DNA of 64,000 nucleotides, taken from assembly GCA_045837725.1 (NCBI GenBank), contig JBEWZL010000304.1, forward strand, positions 62,001 through 126,000, given 5' to 3'. Under the pieces are notes generated by a model. That model did no database searches, was not told the origin of the DNA, and was given only the letters and a program-made list of their open reading frames with translations. The stretch is from Vermamoeba vermiformis. Lineage: Eukaryota. This document shows, piece by piece, positions 14,147 to 58,400 of this stretch (its first letter is position 1; each line of letters opens with the position of its first letter). The position numbers and the translations under genes were made by a program.

Positions 14147-17100
14147 ATGCGTAGTATAATCACAATACTACTGGCAATGACTAGACAGATTGGCTGTTGC
14201 GTCAGATCTGCATACTGCACGGCGTTTTCAGCCTGGAAGTTTTATTGTAACGAAAATAGACGGAACGTCCAGTAGGTAACTTATGTTTAGTATACCTATA
14301 ATATATTACGTTAATATCTTGCACGTTTGTATTCTAGATTGTGTAATAACTGCTCAAAACCCGCTCGGAAAATCAGTTTCTTTAGTAGAATATGCACTAA
14401 ATGGCACAAAGTTGCAACAAATAGACCTTCCTATGTAAGTGATAGTAATATGCATTAATGGAGATTCAATTGCCGCTATTTCCTTTTATTTAATGAAAAG
14501 CGTTGATGACGAGTGATTGAATACGGGACTATTTACTTTGATTGCCAAGCAATAATTGATCTCTAATACATTATTACTACTTTAAATATTGTTTTCATGA
14601 TTCAATAGTTGCAATTTTGGAATCTTTACGAGAGTAGTGGGCACATCCGGGTCAACCAGCGATAGCCCTAAATGCACGCTTACAGGAAGCATGCTAGAAG
14701 GAAAGCTCGCAATATCTCCCGATAGAACTACATTAGGATTGGCTTGCTATGATTCTGATCCAGCAGCACCGACGCCAACATCCGACCCTCGCGTCTCAGC
14801 CTTCATCGACAATACTGGAGCTATTACCCAGAGCATTTTGTGGGACAATACCTTTGATAGTAATAGTTTTGTCAGCGCTGCCGTCTCAAGTGGAAATGAA
14901 ACGTGGACATCTGGAACACAAAAAGTGGTTCAGAAATCGTTGGACTCGGGTATCGCCAGCGTTGTAGCCACCTCCACCAACATACTTACCGTCAAAATAT
15001 TCAACAACGAGCTATACGTCGGCAACAACACGCACGTCATTCAAGTTTCCAGCTCGCAATCTTTGAATGCGGTTGGATCTTCCTTTTTTGACTTTGCCAT
15101 ACTCGATGCTACGAATACTGTCGTTGGATTTGATACATTATACGTCGTATCGAATAGCTTGGGAAAGGTCCAGAAATTTGTCAAGTCTGGAGATTCGTGG
15201 GTCTCATCCGGATCTGCTGATGTTCTGAGCCCGATCAGTGTTTTTGGCTACATTGACTCCAATGGCGATACCATTTTGCTTGTAGGCACTTCAACAGGAA
15301 AGATCATTAGGTTCATAGACCTTACCGAAGATGCCACTTTGGTCGACGAATCCCCGCTCCAGACTTGGTTCCTTGGCATTACAATGAGTCCTACTACCCT
15401 TTGCAGCGATGGATTATTATCCACGGAGATTGGCGAGACTGACATCGACTGTGGAGGACCATTTTGCGCTCAATGTCCCAGCGGCAAGAGGTGCTCAAAC
15501 AACTTGGATTGCTTGCAAAACTACTGCTCCTCGACCACGAACACGTGTGGTAAGTCAACTTAGTCATGTCCAATCTCCTGGCCATGTGACTTAATTTCCT
15601 TTTTTAGAATCTCCATGTCTTGACGGCATCAAGAACTGGGGCGAGACTGATTTGAACTGCGGAGGAGACAACTGCAATGCGCTGTACAAGTGCGCTAATG
15701 ACCTTCAATGCAACGTCAACGAAGACTGTCAGTCCAACATTTGCACAGGCGGAATTTGCAGTAAGGAGGACTCTTTACACCTTATTTCTTACTCACGACT
15801 ATATTTAGTTGCTCAATCTTGCACTGACGGCATCAAAAACCAAGATGAAACTGGCGTGGACTGCGGTGGAGTTAGCCCTTCGTGTCCCAAAGTGTAGCAT
15901 TGTTTTTTCTTGTCACTTGTCGACGATGACTGCCTGAGCTTGCATTGTAATGGTACCCTCTGTGGTAAGTAGTGTGCGCTTGCGTTGTTTTTTTTTCTTA
16001 GGAGAATAATTTAAAAAACTTAGTCCCCGCAACATGTTCGGATTCGATCCGTAACCAAAACGAAACCGACATTGATTGCGGTGGAGTTTGTGATCCATGT
16101 GGATATAATCAGAGCTGCAATGTTGATACTGATTGCACGAGCTTGCATTGCGTTAGCCTGAAGTGCGGTAAGTTTTTGGGGTGGATCTTCAACGACCTGT
16201 TCTGAGCCTTCTTGTAGCTTTACCAACATGCGACGACACGATTAAGAACGGCAACGAGACCGACACTGACTGTGGAGGAAAATGCTCCCCGCTTGTACTG
16301 ACAAAAAAGCTTGCAAAGATCAACGAAGACAGCACTGATTTGCATTGCAATGGTACCTTCTGTGAAGTAGAAATATACAACTACTAAGTGACGCCTCATT
16401 ACCTTGATGCCTAATCATATCATATTACAGTCGCCCCTGCATGCGACGACCAAATTCTGAACGGCGATGAAACTGGCCACTGACTGCGGTGGCTCGTGCA
16501 TTAAGTGTGGGGACAACAATGTTTGCAAAGTTGAACTCAGACTGCGTAGGTCTTCGTTGCTGACTCTGCTTGCAGTAAGTACAAAGATTGGGAATATTCT
16601 AAGGCTACGATGTTATGCGCTTGATATCCAGTTCAAACCACGTGCTCAGACGGGATCCACAATCAAAATGAAACTGACACTGATTGCGGTCAGGTTTGTG
16701 ATCCTTGTGGATTCCGTCAATCATGTCAAGTAGACACCGATTGCACAAAGCTTGCACTGTTTTGGTTTTAAGTGTGGTAAGTTTTATTCGAGCGGAACAA
16801 AGTGACCAGATCTAATAACTATTTTTTTAAGTTCTGGGGAGCGACGGCGACACGGTAAGAGAACGGCAACGAAACTGACATTGACTGTGGAGGACCATAC
16901 TCAGCTTGCGCTGATAACAAAATGTGCAAAGTCAACGAGGAAAGTACCAGCTTGCATTGTGACAGCGGTACTTACGCGGTAAGTCTACACTCATTAGCAG
17001 AGACTTCTAGACCAACTTACTAATATTCTCTTAAATGCAGTTGCCCCTTCGTGCGACGATCAAATTTTGAACGGCGATGAAACAGCCACCGACTGCGGTG

Positions 17101-20100
17101 GCTCGTGCAACAAGTGTGATGATGGAGACACTTGCAAAGTTGACTCAGACTGCATTAGTCTAGGTAGCGGTACTACTAGCACGGTAAGTGACACGTATTT
17201 ATTGGGTCCCTAAACATGGCGTAATGATTGTTATTAGTAACTGCTACGTGCGCAGACGGGATCCACAACCAAAATGAAACTGACACTGATTGCGGTGGAG
17301 TTTGTGACCCGTGTGGATTCAATCAATCCTGTCAAGTCGATACTGATTGCACGAGCTTGCACTGTGTTGGCTTGAAGTGCGGTAAGTTTTGAAGTTTCTG
17401 CATTGGGGATCCGTGAGTACGTGAGGCTAACCTAGTGAATAGCTTTACCAACATGCGATGACACGATAAAGAACGGCAATGAAACGGATACCGATTGTGG
17501 AGGTACTTGCTCCCCTTGTTCCGATAACAAAACTTGCAAAGCAAACGCGGACTGCACCAGTTTGCATTGCAATGGTACCTTCTGTGGTAAGTATACAACT
17601 ACTACTCGACGCCTCATCGAGCTTGATGCTGATCATATCATAATATAGTCGCCCCTGCATGCGATGACCAAATTCTGAACGGCGATGAAACAGCCACTGA
17701 CTGCGGTGGTTCATGCAACAAGTGTGAGGACAACAATGCTTGCAAAGTTGACTCAGACTGCATTAGTCTTCATTGTGCCGCCGAAGTGTGTGGTAAGTAC
17801 CAATGACCATCGTGAAGCACAATACTAAAGTATAATCAAGTCGCTGCTACTTGTTTCGACGGTATCAAAAATCAGAACGAGACCGACACTGATTGCGGTG
17901 GAGTTTGCGATAAGAAATGCGATGACACCAAGAGTTGCTCTGTCAACAGCGATTGTGTCAGCTTGCACTGCTCGGCATTGACTTGTGGTATGTAGAAATA
18001 CTTAATAAGAAAGTCATTATTGACGCTTCTGTCAGTGGCTGCAACTTGTAACGACACAATTCAAAACAACGAAGAAACGGACGTTGATTGCGGTGGAAAT
18101 TGCGCTAAGTGTGAAGACTCCAAAAAATGTTTGGCCAATTCAGATTGCACTAGTCTTCATTGTGTCAACCATTTTATTGCGGTAAGCAATTCTAATTTAC
18201 CTTTTGTTTTAAGTATTAATGCAACTTGAAGCCGCTCCCACTTGCATCGACACCATTAAAAATCAAGATGAGACCGACACTGATTGCGGTGGTTCCACGT
18301 GCCAATCATGCCCTGATACGAAGGCTTGTTTGGTCAACGCAGACTGTGCCAGTCTTAACTGTTCTAGCCAAATTTGCGGTACGCGAAAATTCTGACACAG
18401 GACGCCTTGCGGGTCCAAATTAACCTTTTCTTACAGTCGCTGCCACATGCTCAGATTCGATTAAGAACCAAGCCGAGACTGACGTTGATTGTGGTGGTCC
18501 TTGCTCTGCTTGTGATCCAGGTCTCGGGTGCAAGGTTGACGCGGACTGCACGAGCAAAAACTGCGTCAATGAAGTGTGTCAAGCACCGACATGTACTGAC
18601 AACATTTTGAACGGTAATGAGACCTCTAAGGACTGCGGAGGCAACGATTGCGGCCAATGCAGTGATGACTCAAGCTGCAAAGTCAACAGCGATTGTGTCA
18701 GCTTGCATTGCGACAACCTCGTTTGCGGTACGTAAAACTCAGTTCTAGTCTTTGCATCTCAGATCTAATGCTCGGATCTTAGTTAAGGCCACGTGCTCGG
18801 ACTCCATTAAGAACCAAGGCGAGACTGACGTTGATTGTGGTGGTCCTTGCTCTGCTTGTGATCCAGGTCTCGGGTGCAAAGTTGATGCTGACTGCACGAG
18901 CAAAAACTGCGTCAACGAAGTGTGTCAAGCACAAACGTGTACTGACCAGCATTTTGGTGACGGCGTAGAGACCTCTAAGAAGTTGTGGAGGCAATAACTG
19001 CGACAAGTGCAGCGATAACTTGAGCTGTAAAGTCAACAGTGATTGTGATAAGGCTTGCATTGTGACACCCTCGTTTGCGGTACGTAAAACTTCACAACAA
19101 CGGCTATCTTTCCTAATCTAATACTTGGATATTAGTTGAGGCCACGTGCTCTGATGGCATTCGTAATCAGAACGAATTTGACGTTGATTGTGGTGGCACT
19201 AAGTGTACCTACAAACAGCCTTGACGATCAAATGTGTTTGGTCAATAATGATTGCACGAGCCTTCACTGCAATGGAACCACTTGTCGTGAGTATAATAAG
19301 ACTATAATACGATGATACAGTAGCGTAATTGATTGCTCTTAGTGGCACCGACGTGCGACGACCAGATCCAAAATCAAGACGAAGTTGATGTCGATTGTGG
19401 CGGTCTTGTTTGTGGTGGATGTGCTCCTGGAGGAAAGTGCCTCGATAGTTCGGGTTGCACGAGCAATAATTGCCTCAACGGCATCTGTCGTAAGTACCGA
19501 AAATAATTTAAGTACCAAATCTGTTCATTTATTAAATTCATTTTAGAATCACCTACGTGCGACGACGGCATCATTAACCAAGGCGAGACCGATTATGACT
19601 GCGGAGGTCCTAATTGTCCCACGTGCTCGCAAGGACAAAAATGCTTGAGCAATTCAGATTGTTCGAGCTTGAGTTGCGCAGAAGGAAAATGCAGTAAGAA
19701 CAATATTCAATATTCTCTATGTATATGATTATTAAGGACTTTTATAGTAATGCCTACTTGCAATGATCGAATCATGAACGGTGCTGAGACGGATGTGGAC
19801 TGCGGTGGTGCTCTAGGCTGTTCACCTTGCGGTAACGGAAAGAACTGTTTGTTGGCTAGTGATTGTACTAGTGGTATATGCATTAACGATACTTGTCGTA
19901 AGTAGATCAAGAACCTTGAAGCGGATCTAATTTTTTCCTAGAAACCCCGACTTGTACCGATAATGTGAAGAACGGTCAAGAGACTAGTACTGATTGCGGT
20001 GGTCCCACGTGCAATGCTTGTCCATCAGGTAGTCGATGCTTCAACGGCAATGATTGTCAGAGCCTCAATTGCGTCTTCTTCACTTGCCGTACGTGCACTT

Positions 20101-21280
20101 AATTTTCATGAACTATGAGATACTAATCAATTATTACAGTGGCTCCTACTTGTACTGATGGAATTCACAATGGCAACGAAACCGACACTGATTGCGGCGG
20201 TTCGTGTACCGGATGTGACGCTGGATTAACTTGCGACAAAAACTCAGATTGTCTTAGTCTTAATTGCGTTGATTATAAGTGTGGTATGTACTTTTACATC
20301 AATTTATTCGTATATTAAGCCAATTATACAGCTAACTCAACGTGCGACGACGCCATTCAAAACGGATTTGAAACTGCCGTGGACTGCGGTGGATCTGACT
20401 GCCAACCTTGCCCAGTAGACAAAACATGCAACATCAATGAAGATTGTACTAGCTTGCATTGTTTGAACGGATTGTGTGGTAAGTCTTGTCTCAAAATTGA
20501 AAACCAGATTCGGATCTGACCTTCAAATTTTATTCCAGTCGCCCCAGCATGCGATGACCAAATTAAGAATGGTGATGAAACGGATCAAGATTGCGGTGGC
20601 TCATGCAGTCTCTCGCTTGCGCTTTAGATTTGAAGTGCCTCATCCGCTCTGACTGCGCTTCGAACAATTGGCCGCAAGGCATTTGCGGTCAGTAACGACA
20701 ACTTGCTTTAACTTCAACAAGTCCTAATACTGTTATTATTAGTGCTCACCCCCGCGACCTGTAACGACGGCATTCTGAATCGAGACGAGACCGACACTGA
20801 CTGTGGTGGCAGTTGCGATAAATATCCCCTCAACCAAATCAACACTCCGTCTCCAACGATTGTTCTTCAGACTCATGCTCGCAACATATCTGCAGTAAGT
20901 CCTCCACGGTCACGTGATTTCCTAATATGGCAAGTCTAACGATGATGATTACAGGCACGCTACCCGCACCCATCCCTACTCCAATCTCGGTACCTGTTGC
21001 TGCTCCAGTTAATACGCCCGTTCATGAAACACCGGTCACTCCAGTAGCTGTGCCAGTCAGTGCACCAGTCAGCTCGCCAGTAACAGTAAATCCACCAATC
21101 AACAACGTACCTGAGCCTATTGCTTCGCCCGTTCCTGTTCCTGTGAGCAACGCACCTGTCCAGGCCGGCAACACACCTCAAGCAGAAACAGCTACGCCTC
21201 ACTCTGCAGCGAGTGGATCACGTGCTACTCATTCCGCACTACAACTCGTGGTTCTATCACTCGTGCTGTACTTCTATTAA
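14147..21280 (+). CDS. Large Cys-rich repeat (ETDxDCGG) surface protein, left-arm copy with apparent frameshifts
   Basis: Mirror of 52478-59561. Frame is disrupted in patches at about 14170-14360, 15870-17210, 18930-19230 and 20610-20890. Confidence 0.75.
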
Positions 21281-34339: not shown

Positions 34340-34410
34340 TGCACTCACCGGGAATCGAACCCGGGTCGCCCGCGTGGCAGGCGGACATCATGCCCCTAGA
34401 CCATGAGTGC
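34340..34410 (-). tRNA. trnG-GCC: tRNA-Gly(GCC)
   Basis: 71 nt cloverleaf GCACTCA-TG-GTCTAGGGGCATGAT-G-TCCGC-CTGCCAC-GCGGG-CGAC-CCGGG-TTCGATT-CCCGG-TGAGTGC-A, followed by a TTCTTTTTT Pol III terminator. Confidence 0.95.
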
Positions 34411-34581
34411 CTTGTTGATTTTTTTCGGCGAGATTTTTCGAGTCACACCACTTCGTTAAGCCATCAAACAGCATTCATTTCTTCTTTGGCCCCTTGGTTG
34501 CATATTGTCCTTTCCTTTTGATGCAGTAATGGCCGCCGACAGCAATACACGTAGTTAATAAATACTTTACTGCTAAGACAG

Positions 34582-36307
34582 TTACTTCCTTGGCGAACCT
34601 CGCTTAGACATTGCGGCAGCTAAATCACCCATCAAGCCACCGCCGCCACCAGGTGGACCAGGACGTGCTCCTCCAGAGGGTGGGCCTCCTCCGCTTTTTT
34701 CTTTTGAAACTATCGGTGCTGACCGATCATTCGTTTGTGCTTTCTTCAAGCCACCTGTGCGCGTGTTAGTTAAAAATTTCTGCTATGTGCAACGCTAGAA
34801 CGCACCTTTTTTGAAATTTGCAATCGATGATAATAGGGCATTTCGTTCACCGCTTGGAGGCGGGGCATCGTACTCTTCGGGTTGCTCAACAGCTTTGAAA
34901 GCTGGTGGTGGAGGTGGAGGCGGACCTCCAGCCTTTGGCATAGGTGGAGGTGGGGGTGGACCTCCGGCGGTTTTTGGAGTTGGCGGAGGTGGAGGAGGAC
35001 CCCCAGCTGTCTTTTGAGGAAGTGGAGGTGGAGCACCGTAAGATTGCTGCGGTGCTTGACTCGCGCGTTGTTGCGGTGGCATTGGTGGCGTGCCTTGCTC
35101 TATGAAACCAATTAGCTATTAGTGCTATTCAAGAAGAAATATGTAGTACGTTTAGGAGGTGCGGCTACTTTGGGCATTTTAGGTGGTGGCGGGTTTGGGG
35201 TTCGCGGTGACGTCATCATTTGTGGCGGAGGTGTAGGCTGTGCTGTCGCTCGAGGAGACGGTGCGCCGGCACTGCTCTTCAACGGCGTTGTATTTTGCTT
35301 GGGTGGCATCATCATTGGCATTCCCATCATCATCGCTAACAACAGTTATTACGTGCTAAAAGTGTAGTATGATTCTTACGTCTGCCACCAGGAGCGCCAC
35401 CGCCTCCGCTGCTTCCTTTGTCCTTTGTTAAGATAGGTGACGAGCGATCGTTTGTTTGTGCTTTTTTCAATCCGCCCTTCTTAAAATTTGAAATTGACGA
35501 CAAGAGCGCATTGCGCTCACCGCTGGGAGCAGGTGTGTCATAATCCTCATGCGTCTCGGCTGCTTTGAATGCAGGTGGCGGTGGGGGCGGAGGACCTCCT
35601 GCTTTGGGCATGGGAGGTGGTGGAGGTGGGCCTCCAGCCGTCTTCGCCATTGGAGGGGGAGGAGCACTTGCTCTTGTAACAGGTGGGGGTGGTGGAGCTG
35701 AACCATATGACGCCGATGGTTGCGCTGAACGCACACCGGGAGGCGGTAATTTGAATGCACCTTGAGGAGGAGGCTGATTAGCGTAACCTTGATCGTAACC
35801 TTGCTGTTGACCGCTGTAATCCTGTTGACCGCTGTAATCACCATAATTATCTTGTTGAGGAGGTGGTGGCTAGTTTTATCAATAAGTGCGTCGGGCACGG
35901 AGTTTAACATGAATGAACTTACTGCAGGGCGGTAAGGATTATTTGGAGGGGGTGGTGGAGGGCCCGGGTTGGTTGGCGCCGGTGCGTTGTAGCTTAAAAA
36001 GCGAATAAAGATGAGTCATGCTTTCTTTCAAATTCAAAGCACGAGTATTGGTACCTTGTGTTTGTCGTAGTGTGCCCTCCAGCGGCGTTTAATGCCGTCG
36101 ACAATTCCTCGGGTAAATTGCTTCCCTATTAAAGTATTGAGACCCTTTTATTAAAGTTAGTGATTCACGGGTACGTACCTCTAAACTACCCTTATCGGGA
36201 TCGTAGCCCACATGACCTACGTGCTTAAAGCCAGTAGGCGTTCCCAAACTAAAATTGGCGTCTTTTTTTTCTTTGTCCTTTCCAAAAATCTTTTTAAATA
36301 CGGACAT
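34582..36307 (-). CDS. CRIB + polyproline + two WH2 actin-regulating protein (WASP/WIP-like)
   Basis: CRIB LGTPTGFKHVGHVG; GGPPPPPP tracts; two WIP-type WH2 motifs ERNALLSSI(S/A)NFKKGGLKKAQTNDRS(S/A)P; stop TAA at 34582-34584. Confidence 0.85.
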
Positions 36308-36757
36308 GCTGCGGAAAACAAACGTATTAATAGATGCGTGCGATCTGTGGAATAGAAATGACTGAGATTTTGACGATAAATATTATGCCTTCGTTAATTA
36401 AATGAGCAAATCAAAATAAGAATTATAAAGGAATTAATCAGTAAGAATCGAAATGATTTTCTATTGGATCCGATAAAAGTAATTGATTTGAAATGCCTGA
36501 ATTAAATCAGGATGCCTTTTTATCAAGTAAAATTTTAAGAGCATTGTCTGTATTTAATATGCAGTTTGTAGGTTAGTCTTACTTTATTAAAAAATTGAAT
36601 TGTGGTTCTTCAGGCTAATTGTTGAGGCTCAATCAACTGGTAGACACCAATATGTCCGGAATATGCTGTGGTGTTGTTGTTGGGCGAGTAAATTTGCGTG
36701 GTCAATCCAAAAACAGATTTTTCTGATCGCGCACCCGTAAAATTTTCTGATCGAGCC

Positions 36758-37973
36758 ATGAAGGCAACAGCCCTTTTCGTGTGCCTCTTTACTGCGTGTA
36801 CCGCGCAGTTTTGTGTGGACTTGGGTTATGGATGCTTGCGGCTTCGAGCAACAGCCTCAGGACTTGGCCAAATTATCGCGTGCATTCCAGATGGAAAATA
36901 CGTGGAGGATCTTGGCTCAAGCAGATGGCTTGACGGATTAATGTGGAGAAATATTAGGTAAATATTGAGGAATGCAATGGAAATTGATATTTTATAGTTA
37001 TTAATCGGCTGACATTTAATAATTTTAAAATAAGATACAACGGTCAATCAGGCTGGGCGGCAGCAGATTATTTAAAGCACTGTGGAGGCTCGCAACCCAT
37101 AGAAGTTACAAACGGAGCTAAAATATTCGGCAGATTACCTTTTAATACCAGCTTCCCGATCGCTCAATTTTATGGCGATACAGCGTCCGCCCGACTGAAT
37201 CAAGGCGTTTTTTATGGAGCTACACAAGTAAGTAACAACTCATTATAATGTCAAACTCTCCTGCCCACCGTAAATGCAAAACGAATTTTCTGACCTAGAT
37301 TGGCTAATCTGTCAACTCAACAGGGCATGCATTCTGGAGTTGATTGGAGCGTAGCATCTGGCACGCGAGTCCATTCTCTATGCACTGGCCTCGTAGTACA
37401 CGCGGGTATGAACTCCCCTTTTGGTGCAGGACCGCGCAGGTAAGCGAACAATGGATCTGTAAGCACGTGTTTAACCTTTCATGCGCAAGTGTGATTGTTC
37501 GTTGTGGGGATTGGTACGTGATGTACGGCCATCTCTCCGGGGAGACCGTGTTTAAAGGCCAAGAGATACAGGAAAGTCACGTAATAGGCGAGTCTGGCCT
37601 GTCAGGGACTTCTCACATGCACCTTGAAATTAGGTACGTCCGCCCGTCGATATTTATGTGGTTAACGCGTATGAGTTGACACCATTGTTTGCAGACCAGT
37701 CCCTGATAGCTTAAAGAATAATTGGGATCATACAGCGCATCCTGTAAGCCCCGGCAAGGCCGTCAATCCGATGCGATTTTTCGTGGACTCTCTAATAGCA
37801 GATCACTTCAACGCTCGATTACAGGTGCTCGGTGGCAATAAGCACTTCTGTACAGGCAACATGGTAAGTTGGCGTGACATGCATTACCTGACGATTACTT
37901 ACTTTTCGACAAGGTTACCCAGCCAGATATTGTTTTTGGAGGACCTCTTAGGAGTGACCCGTGTACCAATTAG
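36758..37973 (+). CDS. Secreted SH3b + M23 family Zn metallopeptidase (lysostaphin/LytM-like), 6 exons
   Basis: Signal peptide MKATALFVCLFTACTA; SH3b-like LRLRATASG...W..IRYNGQSGWAAADYL; M23 motifs HSGVD (HxxxD), YGHL and SHMHLEIR (HxH), then VNP. Five GT-AG introns. Confidence 0.85.
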
Positions 37974-38050
37974 ATGTAATATATATCCCATATTTAGTAT
38001 TTGTGTCGCATGCTTTATTTACAGGTTTACACGTTTTTTTGGAGATCGCG

Positions 38051-39231
38051 TCAATAGTACGATACTGACGATGGGTAAGACAGCACCACAATGAAGAATA
38101 ACAGCAAAAACAACGAAAATAAAATTAACTCGAAGTATTTGCTGGTTACTTGGCTGGATTCTGTTGTTGACTCGTCGACCGTGAAATCTTTCTCAAAGGC
38201 CAAAACCTTGTCCAAAGAATAATCTCCTTCTCTATAGTACAGCTGATAAAAACACTTTGGCGGAAATATCCTCCTCGGTAATTTTGTGTTTAAAGTGCTG
38301 AAATTGTAATCGTTGGCTGCTAGTTGTTCTGCTTCGTGCCCAATAAGCGGAATGTCATCTTTAGTGGGTGGAACATCCTAACGGTAATGATTATTAGCTT
38401 GTTCATAACGATTCAAACATAACCTAACCTACCTGTTTGACCGAATTCACGAATTTATTAATAAGGTCGCTCATCCAACGCCAGTAGACTTTTGACCGAA
38501 AGACTCGCCAAATCTTCACCGTCCTAGTCTTGTGGAAGTAACATATGAAGTCGCACGCCTTACTATCTGTCACCTCCATTTGCATTTGAATCTGTGCCAT
38601 GTACTCGGGAGGAACGTAGTCGTAGTCACGAAAGTACGGGCACTTTATTTCAATGACAATTCTCTCTTGCAGTTCTTGATCGTGTTCCACGATACCATCC
38701 GGTGTAGCACCCACTTGCTCGTTCTCTGGGTGGAAAACAAAGCCGCTTGGTTTAACGACATTACCAGTTATGTGCTACTTAATCTGTCAGATAGGGAAGC
38801 TCATACATAAAGCTTACCTCGTATATTTTGCGTAATTGAGGTTCTAGTTGCTTGCCAAATTTTACACTCTTGCCACTCGCATTTTCGAGTTCTGTCAGAT
38901 CGACACGCTAGACTTCCAATTAGAAGGATTCGAATTAAATTTACTCGATCATTAATACCTCAACACGGCCTGTCTTAACCTCCCAAAGCGACCTTGGGAT
39001 AATGTATCTAAATTTTTAAATTAGTAATTATTTTCCAGTCAAAATATTTTTACTAACTTGCTGATACCAATCGCCACACCGGCTTCACTGCCCGTTATTA
39101 TAGCGTTTCTGTAAATTTTAAAAATTAAAATAACGCTTGTTGAGTAATTAGGAAAGCAGATCACGCAACACTTACGGACCAACGTGCAGAGTCTTCCATT
39201 CAGAAGAATCCTCGGGTATTTCCTTATTCAT
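38051..39231 (-). CDS. YqaJ-like viral recombinase / lambda-exonuclease family PD-(D/E)xK nuclease with C-terminal TM helix, 6 exons
   Basis: Spliced motifs SSEW..L, IITGSEAGVAIG, LWEVKTG, FGKQLEP, GATPDG, IEIKCP, PPEYMAQIQMQMEV..CDF. The last exon (38377-38051) is open for 108 codons and ends KYFELILFSLFLLLFFIVVLSYPSSVSYY*. Confidence 0.85.
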
Positions 39232-39360
39232 TCTTACACTTCCAACATGATGCTTATGTCAAAAGGAGCAAAACAGTATGGCAACAAAAAAGAGACGAAA
39301 ACTAATGCTGCAAGATGGTCATACAAAGTGGTGTGACTCGAAAAATCTCGCCGAACAAAA

Positions 39361-39532
39361 TCAACAAGGCACTCATGGTCTAGGGGCATGATGTGCGCCA
39401 TGACACGCTGTCTTTCGTCCTGAGCAAAATCAACAAGGCACTCATGGTCTAGGGGCATGATGTTCGCGATGACACGCTGTCTTTCGCTTCCTGCAAACTC
39501 AACAAGGCACTCATGGTCTAGGGGCATGATGT
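39361..39532 (+). repeat. Three exact 34 bp direct repeats at 69 bp period: two degenerate tRNA-Gly copies plus the 5' part of the intact tRNA
   Basis: TCAACAAGGCACTCATGGTCTAGGGGCATGATGT at 39361-39394, 39430-39463 and 39499-39532. Confidence 0.92.
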
Positions 39533-39577
39533 CCGCCTGCCACGCGGGCGACCCGGGTTCGATTCCCGGTGAGTGCA
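39507..39577 (+). tRNA. trnG-GCC: tRNA-Gly(GCC)
   Basis: Identical to the 34340-34410 copy; T-run terminator follows. Confidence 0.95.
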
Positions 39578-39754
39578 TTCTTTTTTGCCTTTTGGCCTCT
39601 TCTGGCTCGCTAGTTTGCGCTCTGTCTTGAGCAGTTCGTTATGGATTAGCTGTTAGTATCCAGAGTACTGGAAGCAAGGACCTTTGACATTAAGACCTCA
39701 CCAAAAATAATCGTGTTTTTTTTTTAATTGTGACACCACACCACAAACCACAGC

Positions 39755-52477: not shown

Positions 52478-55400
52478 TTAATAGAAGTACAGCACGAGTG
52501 ATAGAACCACGAGTTGTAGTGCGGAATGAGTAGCACGTGATCCACTCGCTGCAGAGTGAGGCGTAGCTGTTTCTGCTTGAGGTGTGTTGCCGGCCTGGAC
52601 AGGTGCGTTGCTCACAGGAACAGGAACGGGCGAAGCAATAGGCTCAGGTACGTTGTTGATTGGTGGATTTACTGTTACTGGCGAGCTGACTGGTGCACTG
52701 ACTGGCACAGCTACTGGAGTGACCGGTGTTTCATGAACGGGCGTATTAACTGGAGCAGCAACAGGTACCGAGATTGGAGTAGGGATGGGTGCGGGTAGCG
52801 TGCCTGTAATCATCATCGTTAGACTTGCCATATTAGGAAATCACGTGACCGTGGAGGACTTACTGCAGATATGTTGCGAGCAATAGCCCGAAGAACAATC
52901 GTTGGAGACGAGGCAAGATTTGTTGAGAGCACATTTCGCGCAACTGCCACCACAGTCAGTGTCGGTCTCGTCTTGATTCAGAATGCCGTCGTTACAGGTC
53001 GCGGGGGTGAGCACTAATAATAACAGTATTAGGACTTGTTGAAGTTAAAGCAAGTTGTCGTTACTTACCGCAAATGCCTTGCGTGCAATTGTCTGAAGCG
53101 CAGTCAGAGTTGATGAGGCACTTCAAATCTAAAGCGCAAGGACTGCATGAGCCACCGCAATCTTGATCCGTTTCATCACCATTCTTAATTTGGTCATCGC
53201 ATGCTGGGGCGACTGGAATAAAATTTGAAGGTCAGATCCGAATCTGGTTTTCAATTTTGAGACAAGACTTACCACACAATCCGTTCAAACAATGCAAGCT
53301 AGTACAATCTTCATTGATGTTGCATGTTTTGTCTACTGGGCAAGGTTGGCAGTCAGATCCACCGCAGTCCACGGCAGTTTCAAATCCGTTTTGAATGGCG
53401 TCGTCGCACGTTGAGTTAGCTGTATAATTGGCTTAATATACGAATAAATTGATGTAAAAGTACATACCACACTTATAATCAACGCAATTAAGACTAAGAC
53501 AATCTGAGTTTTTGTCGCAAGTTAATCCAGCGTCACATCCGGTACACGAACCGCCGCAATCAGTGTCGGTTTCGTTGCCATTGTGAATTCCATCAGTACA
53601 AGTAGGAGCCACTGTAATAATTGATTAGTATCTCATAGTTCATGAAAATTAAGTGCACGTACGGCAAGTGAAGAAGACGCAATTGAGGCTCTGACAATCA
53701 TTGCCGTTGAAGCATCGACTACCTGATGGACAAGCATTGCACGTGGGACCACCGCAATCAGTACTAGTCTCTTGACCGTTCTTCACATTATCGGTACAAG
53801 TCGGGGTTTCTAGGAAAAAATTAGATCCGCTTCAAGGTTCTTGATCTACTTACGACAAGTATCGTTAATGCATATACCACTAGTACAATCACTAGCCAAC
53901 AAACAGTTCTTTCCGTTACCGCAAGGTGAACAGCCTAGAGCACCACCGCAGTCCACATCCGTCTCAGCACCGTTCATGATTCGATCATTGCAAGTAGGCA
54001 TTACTATAAAAGTCCTTAATAATCATATACATAGAGAATATTGAATATTGTTCTTACTGCATTTTCCTTCTGCGCAACTCAAGCTCGAACAATCTGAATT
54101 GCTCAAGCATTTTTGTCCTTGCGAGCACGTGGGACAATTAGGACCTCCGCAGTCATAATCGGTCTCGCCTTGGTTAATGATGCCGTCGTCGCACGTAGGT
54201 GATTCTAAAATGAATTTAATAAATGAACAGATTTGGTACTTAAATTATTTTCGGTACTTACGACAGATGCCGTTGAGGCAATTATTGCTCGTGCAACCCG
54301 AACTATCGAGGCACTTTCCTCCAGGAGCACATCCACCACAAACAAGACCGCCACAATCGACATCAACTTCGTCTTGATTTTGGATCTGGTCGTCGCACGT
54401 CGGTGCCACTAAGAGCAATCAATTACGCTACTGTATCATCGTATTATAGTCTTATTATACTCACGACAAGTGGTTCCATTGCAGTGAAGGCTCGTGCAAT
54501 CATTATTGACCAAACACATTTGATCGTCAAGGCAGTTTGCAGTACACTTAGTGCCACCACAATCAACGTCAGTCTCGTCTTGATTACGAATGCCATCAGA
54601 GCACGTGGCCTCAACTAATATCCAAGCATTAGATTAGGAAAGATGGGCGTTGTTGTGAAGTTTTACGTACCGCAAACGAGGGTGTCACAATGCAAGCTGA
54701 CACAATCACTGTTGACTTTACAGCTCAAGTTATCGCTGCACTTGTCGCAGTTATTGCCTCCACAATCCTTAGAGGTCTCATTGCCGTTCAAAATGTTGTC
54801 AGTACACGTCGGTGCTTGACACACTTCGTTGACGCAGTTTTTGCTCGTGCAGTCAGCATCAACTTTGCACCCGAGACCTGGATCACAAGCAGAGCAAGGA
54901 CCACCACAATCAACGTCAGTCTCGCCTTGGTTCTTAATGGAGTCCGAGCACGTGGCCTTAACTAAGATCCGAGCATTAGATCTGAGATGCAAAGACTAGA
55001 ACTGAGTTTTACGTACCGCAAACGAGGTTGTCGCAATGCAAGCTGACACAATCGCTGTTGACTTTGCAGCTTGAGTCATCACTGCATTGGCCGCAATCGT
55101 TGCCTCCGCAGTCCTTAGAGGTCTCATTACCGTTCAAAATGTTGTCAGTACATGTCGGTGCTTGACACACTTCATTGACGCAGTTTTTGCTCGTGCAGTC
55201 CGCGTCAACCTTGCACCCGAGACCTGGATCACAAGCAGAGCAAGGACCACCACAATCAACGTCAGTCTCGGCTTGGTTCTTAATCGAATCTGAGCATGTG
55301 GCAGCGACTGTAAGAAAAGGTTAATTTGGACCCGCAAGGCGTCCTGTGTCAGAATTTTCGCGTACCGCAAATTTGGCTAGAACAGTTAAGACTGGCACAG

Positions 55401-58400
55401 TCTGCGTTGACCAAACAAGCCTTCGTATCAGGGCATGATTGGCACGTGGAACCACCGCAATCAGTGTCGGTCTCATCTTGATTTTTAATGGTGTCGATGC
55501 AAGTGGGAGCGGCTTCAAGTTGCATTAATACTTAAAACAAAGGTAAATTAGAATTGCTTACCGCACAAATTGTTGACACAATGAAGACTAGTGCAATCTG
55601 AATTGGCCAAACATTTTTTGGAGTCTTCACACTTAGCGCAATTTCCACCGCAATCAACGTCCGTTTCTTCGTTGTTTTGAATTGTGTCGTTACAAGTTGC
55701 AGCCACTGACAGAAGCGTCAATAATGACTTTCTTATTAAGTATTTCTACATACCACAAGTCAATGCCGAGCAGTGCAAGCTGACACAATCGCTGTTGACA
55801 GAGCAACTCTTGGTGTCATCGCATTTCTTATCGCAAACTCCACCGCAATCAGTGTCGGTCTCGTTCTGATTTTTGATACCGTCGAAACAAGTAGCAGCGA
55901 CTTGATTATACTTTAGTATTGTGCTTCACGATGGTCATTGGTACTTACCACACACTTCGGCGGCACAATGAAGACTAATGCAGTCTGAGTCAACTTTGCA
56001 AGCATTGTTGTCCTCACACTTGTTGCATGAACCACCGCAGTCAGTGGCTGTTTCATCGCCGTTCAGAATTTGGTCATCGCATGCAGGGGCGACTATATTA
56101 TGATATGATCAGCATCAAGCTCGATGAGGCGTCGAGTAGTAGTTGTATACTTACCACAGAAGGTACCATTGCAATGCAAACTGGTGCAGTCCGCGTTTGC
56201 TTTGCAAGTTTTGTTATCGGAACAAGGGGAGCAAGTACCTCCACAATCGGTATCCGTTTCATTGCCGTTCTTTATCGTGTCATCGCATGTTGGTAAAGCT
56301 ATTCACTAGGTTAGCCTCACGTACTCACGGATCCCCAATGCAGAAACTTCAAAACTTACCGCACTTCAAGCCAACACAGTGCAAGCTCGTGCAATCAGTA
56401 TCGACTTGACAGGATTGATTGAATCCACACGGGTCACAAACTCCACCGCAATCAGTGTCAGTTTCATTTTGGTTGTGGATCCCGTCTGCGCACGTAGCAG
56501 TTACTAATAACAATCATTACGCCATGTTTAGAGATTAAATAAATACGTGTCACTTACTGCAAGTAGTGTCACAATGGAGACTAATGCAGTCTGAGTCAAC
56601 TTTGCAAGTGTTGCCATCATCACACTTGTTGCACGAGCCACCGCAGTCGGTGGCTGTTTCATCGCCGTTCAAAATTTGATCGTCGCACGAAGGGGCAACT
56701 GCATTAAGAGAATATTAGTAAGTTGGTCTAGAAGTCTCTGCTAATGAGTGTAGACTTACCGCAAGTACCGCTGTCACAATGCAAGCTGGTGCAATCTTCG
56801 TTGACTTTGCACATTTTGTTATCAGCGCAAGCTGAGCATGTGCCTCCACAGTCAATGTCAGTTTCGTTGCCGTTCTTTATCGTGTCGTCGCAGGTCGGTA
56901 GAACTTAAAAAAAATAGTTATTAGATCTGGTCACCGAGATCTGCTCGAATAAACTTACCACACTTTAATCCAAAACAGTGCAAGCTTGTGCAATCGGTGT
57001 CTACTTGACATGATTGATTGAATCCACATGGATCACAAACTCCACCGCAATCAGTGTCAGTTTCATTTTGATTGTGGATCCCGTCTGAGCACGTGGCAGG
57101 AACTGATATCAAGCGTTAACATCGTAGCCTTAGAATATTCCCAATCTTGTACTTACTGCAAGTAGAGTCGCAATGAAGACTAATGCAGTCTGAGTCAACT
57201 TTGCAAGCATTGTTGTCCCCACACTTGTTGCACGAGCCACCGCAGTCAGTGGCTGTTTCATCGCCGTTCAGAATTTGGTCGTCGCATGCAGGGGCGACTG
57301 TAATATGATATGATTAGCATCAAGGTAATGAGGCGTCAAGTAGTAGTTGTATACTTACCACAGAAGGTACCATTGCAATGCAAACTAGTACAGTCTTCGT
57401 TGATCTTGCAAGCTTTTTTGTCAGTACAAGGGGAGCAAGTACCTCCACAGTCAGTGTCGGTCTCGTTGCCGTTCTTAATCGTGTCGTCGCATGTTGGTAA
57501 AGCTACAAGAAGGCTCAGAACAGGTCGTTGAAGATCCACCCCAAAAACTTACCGCACTTCAGGCTAACGCAATGCAAGCTCGTGCAATCAGTATCAACAT
57601 TGCAGCTCTGATTATATCCACATGGATCACAAACTCCACCGCAATCAATGTCGGTTTCGTTTTGGTTACGGATCGAATCCGAACATGTTGCGGGGACTAA
57701 GTTTTTTAATTAGCTCCCTAAGAAAAAAAAAAACATCGCACGCGCACACTACTTACCACAGAGGGTACCATTACAATGCAAGCTCAGGCAGTCATCGTCG
57801 ACAAGACAAGAAATTTCATCGCCACACTTGGGACACGAAGAGGTAACTCCACCGCAGTCCACGCCAGTTTCATCTTGGTTTTTGATGCCGTCAGTGCAAG
57901 ATTGAGCAACTAAATATAGTCGTGAGTAAGAAATAAGGTGTAAAGAGTCCTCCTTACTGCAAATTCCGCCTGTGCAAATGTTGGACTGACAGTCTTCGTT
58001 GACGTTGCATTGAAGGTCATTAGCGCACTTGTACAGCGCATTGCAGTTGTCTCCTCCGCAGTTCAAATCAGTCTCGCCCCAGTTCTTGATGCCGTCAAGA
58101 CATGGAGATTCTAAAAAAGGAAATTAAGTCACATGGCCAGGAGATTGGACATGACTAAGTTGACTTACCACACGTGTTCGTGGTCGAGGAGCAGTAGTTT
58201 TGCAAGCAATCCAAGTTGTTTGAGCACCTCTTGCCGCTGGGACATTGAGCGCAAAATGGTCCTCCACAGTCGATGTCAGTCTCGCCAATCTCCGTGGATA
58301 ATAATCCATCGCTGCAAAGGGTAGTAGGACTCATTGTAATGCCAAGGAACCAAGTCTGGAGCGGGGATTCGTCGACCAAAGTGGCATCTTCGGTAAGGTC

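Follow-up and report, generated by a model that had tools for sequence, protein, structure and literature searches.

A minus-strand gene at 39231-38051 in a 64,000-nucleotide stretch of the Vermamoeba vermiformis genome (contig JBEWZL010000304.1, positions 62,001 to 126,000; hereafter the window) is predicted to encode a nuclease of the YqaJ/lambda-exonuclease family that ends in a hydrophobic helix, and it lies in the spacer between the arms of a giant inverted repeat. The locus raises the question of what a nuclease of this family would do at an amoebal membrane, and whether its place in the spacer has anything to do with its activity. A conserved membrane-fixed nuclease would be a concrete candidate for the handling of foreign DNA by amoebae, be it from giant viruses, prey or symbionts.

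The gene was modelled as six exons encoding a product of 304 aa, separated by five introns of 67, 50, 51, 43 and 55 nt, all of which have GT..AG borders. Exon 1 (39176..39231; all exons are on the minus strand) carries the start codon, W12 and H16, and its start and junction are the same in the full-length orthologue P0008 and in the metagenome locus L096. Exon 2 (39058..39108) carries the TGSE motif (T24, S26), exon 3 (38959..39007) was defined by the gene model and the comparison with L096, exon 4 (38818..38907) carries the G-x3-E motif (E74), and exon 5 (38433..38774) encodes the PD-(D/E)XK core (D108, E124, K126, Y140, Q143) together with the last core helix. Exon 6 (38051..38377) encodes a clade-specific extension (about residues 197-245), a fast-evolving linker, the membrane helix, an 8-residue tail and the stop. 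In P0008, 257 of the 304 aligned positions are identical to the window model, every junction is in register and the tail is kept; queries with exon 5 and exon 6 each returned its cluster mate P0003 (88% and 81% identity, respectively). A metagenome scan gave four loci among 104 pattern matches. The metagenome loci L095 and L096, which are one organism as judged from their identical overlap, have the same five introns and the tail of the window gene, so that the five spliceosomal introns read in a preliminary description of the window were confirmed. A search of assembly G000 for the YqaJ family gave two copies of the gene and no others, the second being on the same contig (C304:19312-20621, 99%).

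Reads and contigs of four runs were compared with the window over 37300-39700; runs X15-X20, with only 6-7% of the words, were left out. Intron 5 (38378..38432, minus strand, 55 nt) holds an in-frame stop at 38424 that would be read if the intron were left unspliced, and it is at the same position in L095 and L096. One contig of X7, for which the RNA label is a guess, joins 38433 to 38377 (99+% alike, depth 4.2), skipping 38378-38432 and reaching 38087 inside the helix; this is the splice on which the earlier reading of a last exon depended. Raw RNA reads of X21 and X23, which come from a more diverged strain (about 85-95% alike), show, at low depth, loose ends consistent with the joining of exon 2 to exon 3 and of exon 3 to exon 4 (both seen in X21), and RNA depth over the nuclease gene was low. 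Low-level retention of intron 5, with a product ending at 38424, may occur. As the true end of the protein this stop was rejected, since it is present solely in prokaryote-style gene calls on DNA (P0010, P0023). A sixth intron that would remove the tail (GT 38149, AG 38065) was also ruled out, since the X7 contig is unspliced from 38376 to 38087.

By its profile matches, the window protein is a member of the YqaJ family, as had been proposed. Pfam YqaJ (PF09588, cut-off 22 bits) matched exon 5 with E 1.3e-10 and 42.2 bits, and full-length P0008 with E 1.1e-24 and 87.8 bits. TIGR03033 gave P0008 a score of 69.1 against a cut-off of 68.05, with P0027 above this cut-off and P0031 slightly below it. 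The motifs TGSE (24-27), GKQLE (70-74), ATPDG (105-109), EIKCP (124-128) and YMAQIQMQ (140-147) are present, and E74, D108, E124, K126 and Q143, aligned with the lambda motifs through the profile, are intact; the equivalent residues of P0008 (E74, D107, E123, K125, Q142) show conservation of 90% or more across 121 rows. An AlphaFold2 model of P0008, the 85% identical orthologue, was built from 121 rows with a pLDDT of 90.7. The top nine Foldseek matches of this model were LHK-Exo and lambda exonuclease chains (E 9e-10 to 9e-8), followed by mimivirus R354. The amoeba nuclease has in common with lambda exonuclease and LHK-Exo (PF09588, TIGR03033; PDB 3SM4, 1AVQ, 3SYY) the fold (E about 1e-9, TM-score 0.65-0.76 on the target) and the W, T-x-S, G-x3-E, PDG, E-x-K and Y-x2-Q motifs. 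However, the amoeba gene has five introns, the protein lacks the R28-equivalent in the window lineage, and its N-terminal loop is about 8-10 residues shorter than that of the solved phage enzymes. In comparison with lambda exonuclease, it also adds the extension, the linker and the C-terminal membrane helix, and it has no linked annealing protein.

The catalytic motif set had been described as complete. This held for the named motifs and the metal-binding residues, but not for the arginine of the W-x3-R motif, which is replaced by H16. In the window protein, in P0008 and in L096, the lambda pattern W-x3-R-x4-T reads W12-x3-H16-x7-T24; three residues are inserted ahead of T24, and no arginine precedes it in any of the three. 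The Arcella protein also has H at W+4, as in the window protein. Where the N-terminus is intact, most of the remaining clade members, such as P0029, P0034, P0037, P0027 and P0031, keep an arginine in this region. R28 of lambda exonuclease contacts the 5' phosphate, and the R28A enzyme is much less active on 5'-phosphate ends, according to the accessible part of the report (PMC5888420). Loss of the R28-equivalent would probably relax 5'-phosphate dependence or lower processivity in the window lineage, and it counts against canonical activity there.

The C-terminal end of the protein was analyzed by hydropathy. The best 19-residue Kyte-Doolittle window (mean 2.78) covers residues 278-296, that is, a predicted transmembrane helix at 38078..38134 on the minus strand, which ends 8 residues before the stop and is the sole strongly hydrophobic stretch of the 304-aa protein; the structure model of P0008 has a helix at 272-295. 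The hydrophobic helix of about 20 aa noticed earlier was therefore confirmed, and it was also found to be kept in P0008, in L095/L096 and in most of the amoebozoan clade described below. The 8 residues after the helix are uncharged (net charge 0) in the window protein, and for the 14 other tailed proteins that were scored the net charge ranges from -1 to +1; basic residues are found just ahead of the helix in many clade members. With one C-terminal helix, a polar N-terminus conserved in orthologues and no signal peptide, the protein has by hydropathy the features of a tail-anchored protein. Exon 6 matched no family in Pfam. For the single pair of window gene and L096, with small counts, dN was 0.10 and dS 1.0 over the 28 codons of helix and tail, dN was 0.66 over 12 codons of the linker, and dN was 0.09 in the catalytic exon, where synonymous sites were saturated. 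The helix and tail thus resemble the catalytic exon rather than the linker, and the tail codons are under purifying selection. The tail encoded by exon 6 is real and conserved. A chance reading of T-rich untranslated sequence was ruled out, since the orthologues retain both frame and hydrophobicity.

The distribution of the tail was investigated by querying 1.84 billion representatives with P0003, which gave 2,940 matches at E 0.001; the best 150 of these were taken for the family analysis. Short-word homologue searches were insensitive (5, 1 and 27 matches), and the family was drawn mostly from the large search. A profile of the approximately 48 residues after the nuclease core matched 22 of the best 150 homologues at E below 0.001. 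Among these 150, a hydrophobic C-terminal helix was present in 18 of the 22 extension-bearing homologues versus 1 of the 128 others (P0076), a count biased toward the tail in that 18 of the 22 proteins were in the alignment chosen for the profile, with a tail in two of the remaining four. The extension-bearing proteins without a tail were P0026 (Arcella), P0038, P0036 and P0107, the last being a 116-aa fragment. A taxon name was obtained for 6 of the 19 clade proteins looked up, and all six were amoebozoan: Protostelium nocturnum, Planoprotostelium fungivorum, Pelomyxa schiedti, Mastigamoeba balamuthi, Amoeba proteus and Arcella intermedia, which together span Tubulinea and Evosea. The tail is present in five of them and absent in Arcella intermedia, and the Mastigamoeba balamuthi record is labelled 'putative C-tail anchored'.

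In a fast tree of 177 rows that included the extension columns, 25 rows, 20 of them tailed, grouped with support 98. In a core-only tree (64 chosen rows, 184 columns), 16 clade rows grouped together with three tail-less long-branch proteins (support 95), and when five long-branch rows were left out the clade formed one side of a branch with SH-aLRT 95. The trees resolved no sister group of the clade and did not tell a phage donor from a giant-virus donor. These comparisons indicate that the tail is a trait of an amoebozoan clade. The domesticated, tail-anchored nuclease put forward in the preliminary description thus gained support from the splice and from tail conservation, and its claim had been drawn too narrowly, as the trait belongs to an amoebozoan clade.

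Tail-less YqaJ proteins were also observed in or beside this clade (P0112, P0122, P0148, P0038 and P0176). P0038 and P0176 have the extension and a basic-acidic C-terminal tail, and P0112 and P0148 match the extension weakly; these five proteins could be viral captures or nuclear forms. Outside the clade, the phage-type YqaJ protein P0076 has a C-terminal hydrophobic helix of its own, which suggests that it gained a tail independently.

We compared the nuclease with other cellular and viral YqaJ proteins. Plants have soluble YqaJ-domain homologues. Other soluble eukaryotic proteins, such as Choanoeca flexa P0069, share the cellular YqaJ domain and have no assigned role; unlike the amoebozoan proteins, those of the P0069 type fall outside the clade and carry neither extension nor tail. 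The covered part of a superfamily survey lists the YqaJ family in bacteria, phages and eukaryotes (PMC3424549). The YqaJ recombinases of NCLDV (NCVOG1192; mimivirus R354, PDB 5YET) have the same domain, R354 being a fold match at E 1e-7, and the nearest Atlas clusters by features were Nucleocytoviricota YqaJ proteins. The extension and tail of P0031 gave no match to the Atlas at 0.9 or above. A scan of viral contigs with one peptide pattern gave 50 loci among 297 pattern matches, and as a weak negative none of the 50 aligned beyond residue 201 of 303 into the extension or tail. Viral YqaJ genes were probably acquired several times from phages, as stated in the part available of one analysis (PMC3493329). 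The window gene differs from an endogenous viral element in its five conserved introns, its host-type neighbours and its best viral matches, which reach 25-45% over part of the core. It also differs from a Red/RecET-type module, since no single-strand annealing gene is linked to it and its neighbours are tRNA-Gly, an M23 peptidase, a WASP-like gene and PhyH. No description of a tail-anchored YqaJ protein was found in the literature searched, which lay mostly outside subscription journals and included the survey PMC3424549 in part. The YqaJ family is known; the tail-anchored amoebozoan form with its extension appears to be new.

The role that we prefer for this protein is that of an ER-tethered amoebozoan nuclease that clears cytosolic DNA ends in the manner of TREX1, a proposal made by analogy and held tentatively, at slightly less than an even chance. 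Amoebozoans would have domesticated a phage or giant-virus YqaJ (lambda-exonuclease) gene long ago, leaving an ordinary-looking and probably single-locus host gene, and its product would have gained the extension of about 48 residues, a flexible linker and the C-terminal membrane helix. The helix would be inserted post-translationally into the ER and the continuous nuclear envelope, so that a putative Mg-dependent 5'-to-3' nuclease would be left facing the cytosol. There it could resect the ends of DNA at membrane surfaces, namely viral genomes or factories, leakage from prey vacuoles or symbionts, and extranuclear chromatin. Such action would be TREX1-like with a different fold and the opposite polarity, as the fold of TREX1 is unrelated to YqaJ and its polarity is 3'-to-5'. 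Profile and fold searches of the nuclease gave no match to the TREX1/DEDDh family or its structures; the likeness is one of architecture (cytosolic nuclease domain, linker, C-terminal membrane anchor) and serves as a working analogy only. TREX1 is described, in the accessible parts of two reports, as a tail-anchored ER DNase that is directed to stray DNA by its ER tether (PMC11904002; 10.1101/2020.05.18.102103).

The predicted topology follows from the tail. The nuclease domain is expected to be cytosolic because the protein has no signal peptide and a single C-terminal helix, and the ER or nuclear envelope is favoured because the helix is strongly hydrophobic and the tail charge is low. This combination favours the ER for tail-anchored proteins in mammalian cells, according to the part of the study available to us (PMC5450235), and the prediction carries targeting rules from mammals and yeast over to an amoeba. 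Degradation of prey DNA had been suggested earlier. In the lumen of a food vacuole it is unlikely, since a tail-anchored protein without a signal peptide would expose its nuclease to the cytosol. Amoebozoa are the main known hosts of giant viruses. A wider claim is that they have recruited a recombination exonuclease of phages or viruses as a guard, tethered to the ER, against DNA in the cytosol, and so arrived at the TREX1 design in a conserved cell-intrinsic defence against giant viruses and the DNA of prey and symbionts; this is possible and rather doubtful. If it were true, the TREX1 layout would have been reached convergently from a lambda-exonuclease fold.

The same anchor would also fit the nuclear side, as the ER and the nuclear envelope are one shared membrane. 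Tethered at the inner membrane, the protein could be an end-resection enzyme that trims double-strand breaks, telomere-like ends and chromatin bridges in annealing-type repair, near its ancestral role. The soluble part is just about 275 residues, the genome is rearranged at inverted tRNA repeats, and the known role of the YqaJ family, in the covered part of the survey, is resection for recombination (PMC3424549). However, no annealing-protein gene adjoins the nuclease in the window or between the tRNA genes of L095/L096, no obvious nuclear signal was seen by eye in the tailed members, and a toroidal trimer, if formed, would presumably be large for passage to the inner membrane. We consider this role unlikely; if it is true, eukaryotes would still have put a phage recombination nuclease to a use that has not been described.

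The altered phosphate pocket bears on two further alternatives to cytosolic DNA clearance. In the first, the enzyme would act at the ER surface on RNA or an RNA-DNA hybrid, in the manner of herpesvirus alkaline nucleases, which cut mRNA as well, and the altered 5'-end pocket and the extension would retune specificity. The pocket arginine is indeed changed, the ER surface is rich in RNA, herpesvirus enzymes are among the distant fold matches of the P0008 model, and herpesvirus alkaline exonucleases of the same superfamily have RNase activity, as given in the covered part of the survey (PMC3424549). This substrate is nevertheless distinctly unlikely, as the closest folds are DNA exonucleases (E about 1e-9, versus 7e-3 or weaker for the herpesvirus enzymes) and the arginine of the W-x3-R region is kept by most of the remaining clade members whose N-terminus is intact. 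In the second, the protein of the window lineage would be a weakly active or inactive binder of nucleic-acid ends, a membrane-tethered sensor or scaffold. The lost R28-equivalent with its 3-residue insertion and the persistence of strong sequence constraint agree with this, but every metal-binding residue is kept, and H16, conserved in three diverged orthologues, could still touch the phosphate; we regard such a binder as improbable.

Anchoring to the outer membrane of mitochondria, to a derived organelle or to peroxisomes, with leaked organelle DNA cleared there, is suggested by the basic residues right before the helix in several members and by the human mitochondrial nuclease MGME1, a distant fold match. 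However, the gene and its tail are kept in Pelomyxa and Mastigamoeba, the organelles of which are not known to contain DNA. The tail charge of -1 to +1 and the high hydrophobicity fit the ER instead, by the rules given in the available part of PMC5450235, and the organelle target is very improbable.

The place of the gene in the spacer was then a separate matter from its role. The arms of the inverted repeat in the window (9700-34456 and 39325-64000, part of contig C304 of G000) are at least 24.7 kb long with 96.3% identity, and their inner ends, at about 34456 and 39325, are further in than 100%-type arms suggest. Both copies of the nuclease gene are inside a 5-kb segment bounded by inverted repeats of about 145 bp with tRNA-Gly(GCC). 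In the window, one of these tRNA genes is at 39507..39577 (plus strand), divergent from the nuclease gene, and its partner is at 34340..34410 (minus strand) at the other end of the segment. The second gene copy is outside the palindrome, next to another upstream flank. Over 4.9 kb, 23 differences separate the two spacer copies; C304 has three copies of the downstream region, and over the first 12 kb these show 496-948 substitutions in a patchy, haplotype-like pattern. In DNA run X1, a possible source of the assembly, the summed depth was 414 on the arm flank beside the tRNA versus 431-468 on the gene; these depths are not copy numbers, and the 1.5-fold arm excess predicted by three arms to two spacers was not seen. 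Had the other upstream flank been present twice in G000, inversion would have been directly visible, but the search gave a single match. The giant inverted repeat reported earlier is thus present in the assembly, but the simplest reading is probably that haplotypes were joined head to head across an invertible, tRNA-bounded segment; it may be a real palindrome. Frame-shifting differences in coding sequence were observed between the arms, for example in the PhyH gene, and a polyploid or heterozygous genome, with its haplotypes and with long-read errors, could account for the arm differences.

The link once suggested between the gene and the centre of the giant repeat found no support, and the gene's position was ruled out as a cause of the palindrome, given the second copy with a different flank and the inverted tRNA-Gly repeats that bound the segment. 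The gene lies in the spacer because of these repeats, not because of the enzyme, and inverted tRNA pairs can give rise to giant palindromes in assemblies of this kind. The nuclease gene of L095/L096 stands alone between a divergent tRNA-Gly pair, with outer flanks unrelated to those of the window; the link of gene and tRNA-Gly pair is conserved in this relative. That the gene is cargo or engine of a mobile cassette between two outward-facing tRNA-Gly genes, with the nuclease helping to make the palindrome, would suit this arrangement in a diverged relative, but is scarcely credible in view of the single locus in two near-identical copies, the five conserved introns, the lack of an empty site (the relative's two outer flanking genes are on separate G000 contigs with no tRNA found beside them), another divergent tRNA-Gly pair (C282) that encloses ordinary-looking genes, and a membrane tail ill-suited to a transposition enzyme.

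Outward-facing tRNA-Gly(GCC) pairs enclosing 1.5-16 kb were observed at window 34340-39577, C282:234114-240530, C73:21471-37545 and L096 3395-5022. The partners of each pair on C304, on C282 and in L096 have in common 30-55 bp of flank that is particular to that pair, which suggests repeated homogenisation or inversion between partners. Two extra 69-bp units precede the tRNA in the window (39369..39506, plus strand), each made of the first 26 nt of the tRNA and a variable 43-nt stretch. They are polymorphic, since they are missing from the other copy of the locus, and part of the first unit was seen without differences in an X1 DNA contig. Within the 43-nt stretch, a conserved start and a variable middle are followed by the upstream leader that belongs to the tRNA itself. 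Between one and three extra units were found before tRNA-Gly(GCC) genes at five loci (21 pattern matches in G000), namely the window locus and those on C11, C227, C235 and C282 of G000 (L019-L033). The units folded no more stably than shuffles (z -0.44 and -0.28). They resemble an insertion targeted to the tRNA or a promoter repeat that has been converted. Dada transposons were rejected as their source, as the units do not match the 6-7 bp target duplication described in the accessible part of PMC3706591.

Two other genes of the spacer are outside the nuclease system, and neither is present between the tRNA pair in L095/L096. A spliced gene at 36692..37975 (plus strand, ends approximate), convergent with the nuclease gene, encodes an SH3_3-like domain and Peptidase M23; its bacterial SH3_3 match is weak (E 0.008), and it is expressed with three introns in X7, the RNA label of which is a guess. 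The gene is probably of bacterial origin and its product a secreted enzyme that hydrolyses the cell walls of prey. The second, at 34600..36380 (minus strand, ends approximate), encodes a WASP/WIP-like protein with CRIB/PBD, proline-rich and WH2 parts. Both arms also contain a cysteine-rich coding repeat of about 25 copies with a period near 200 nt and apparently one intron per repeat, at 15600-20800 on the plus strand and 52900-58100 on the minus strand.
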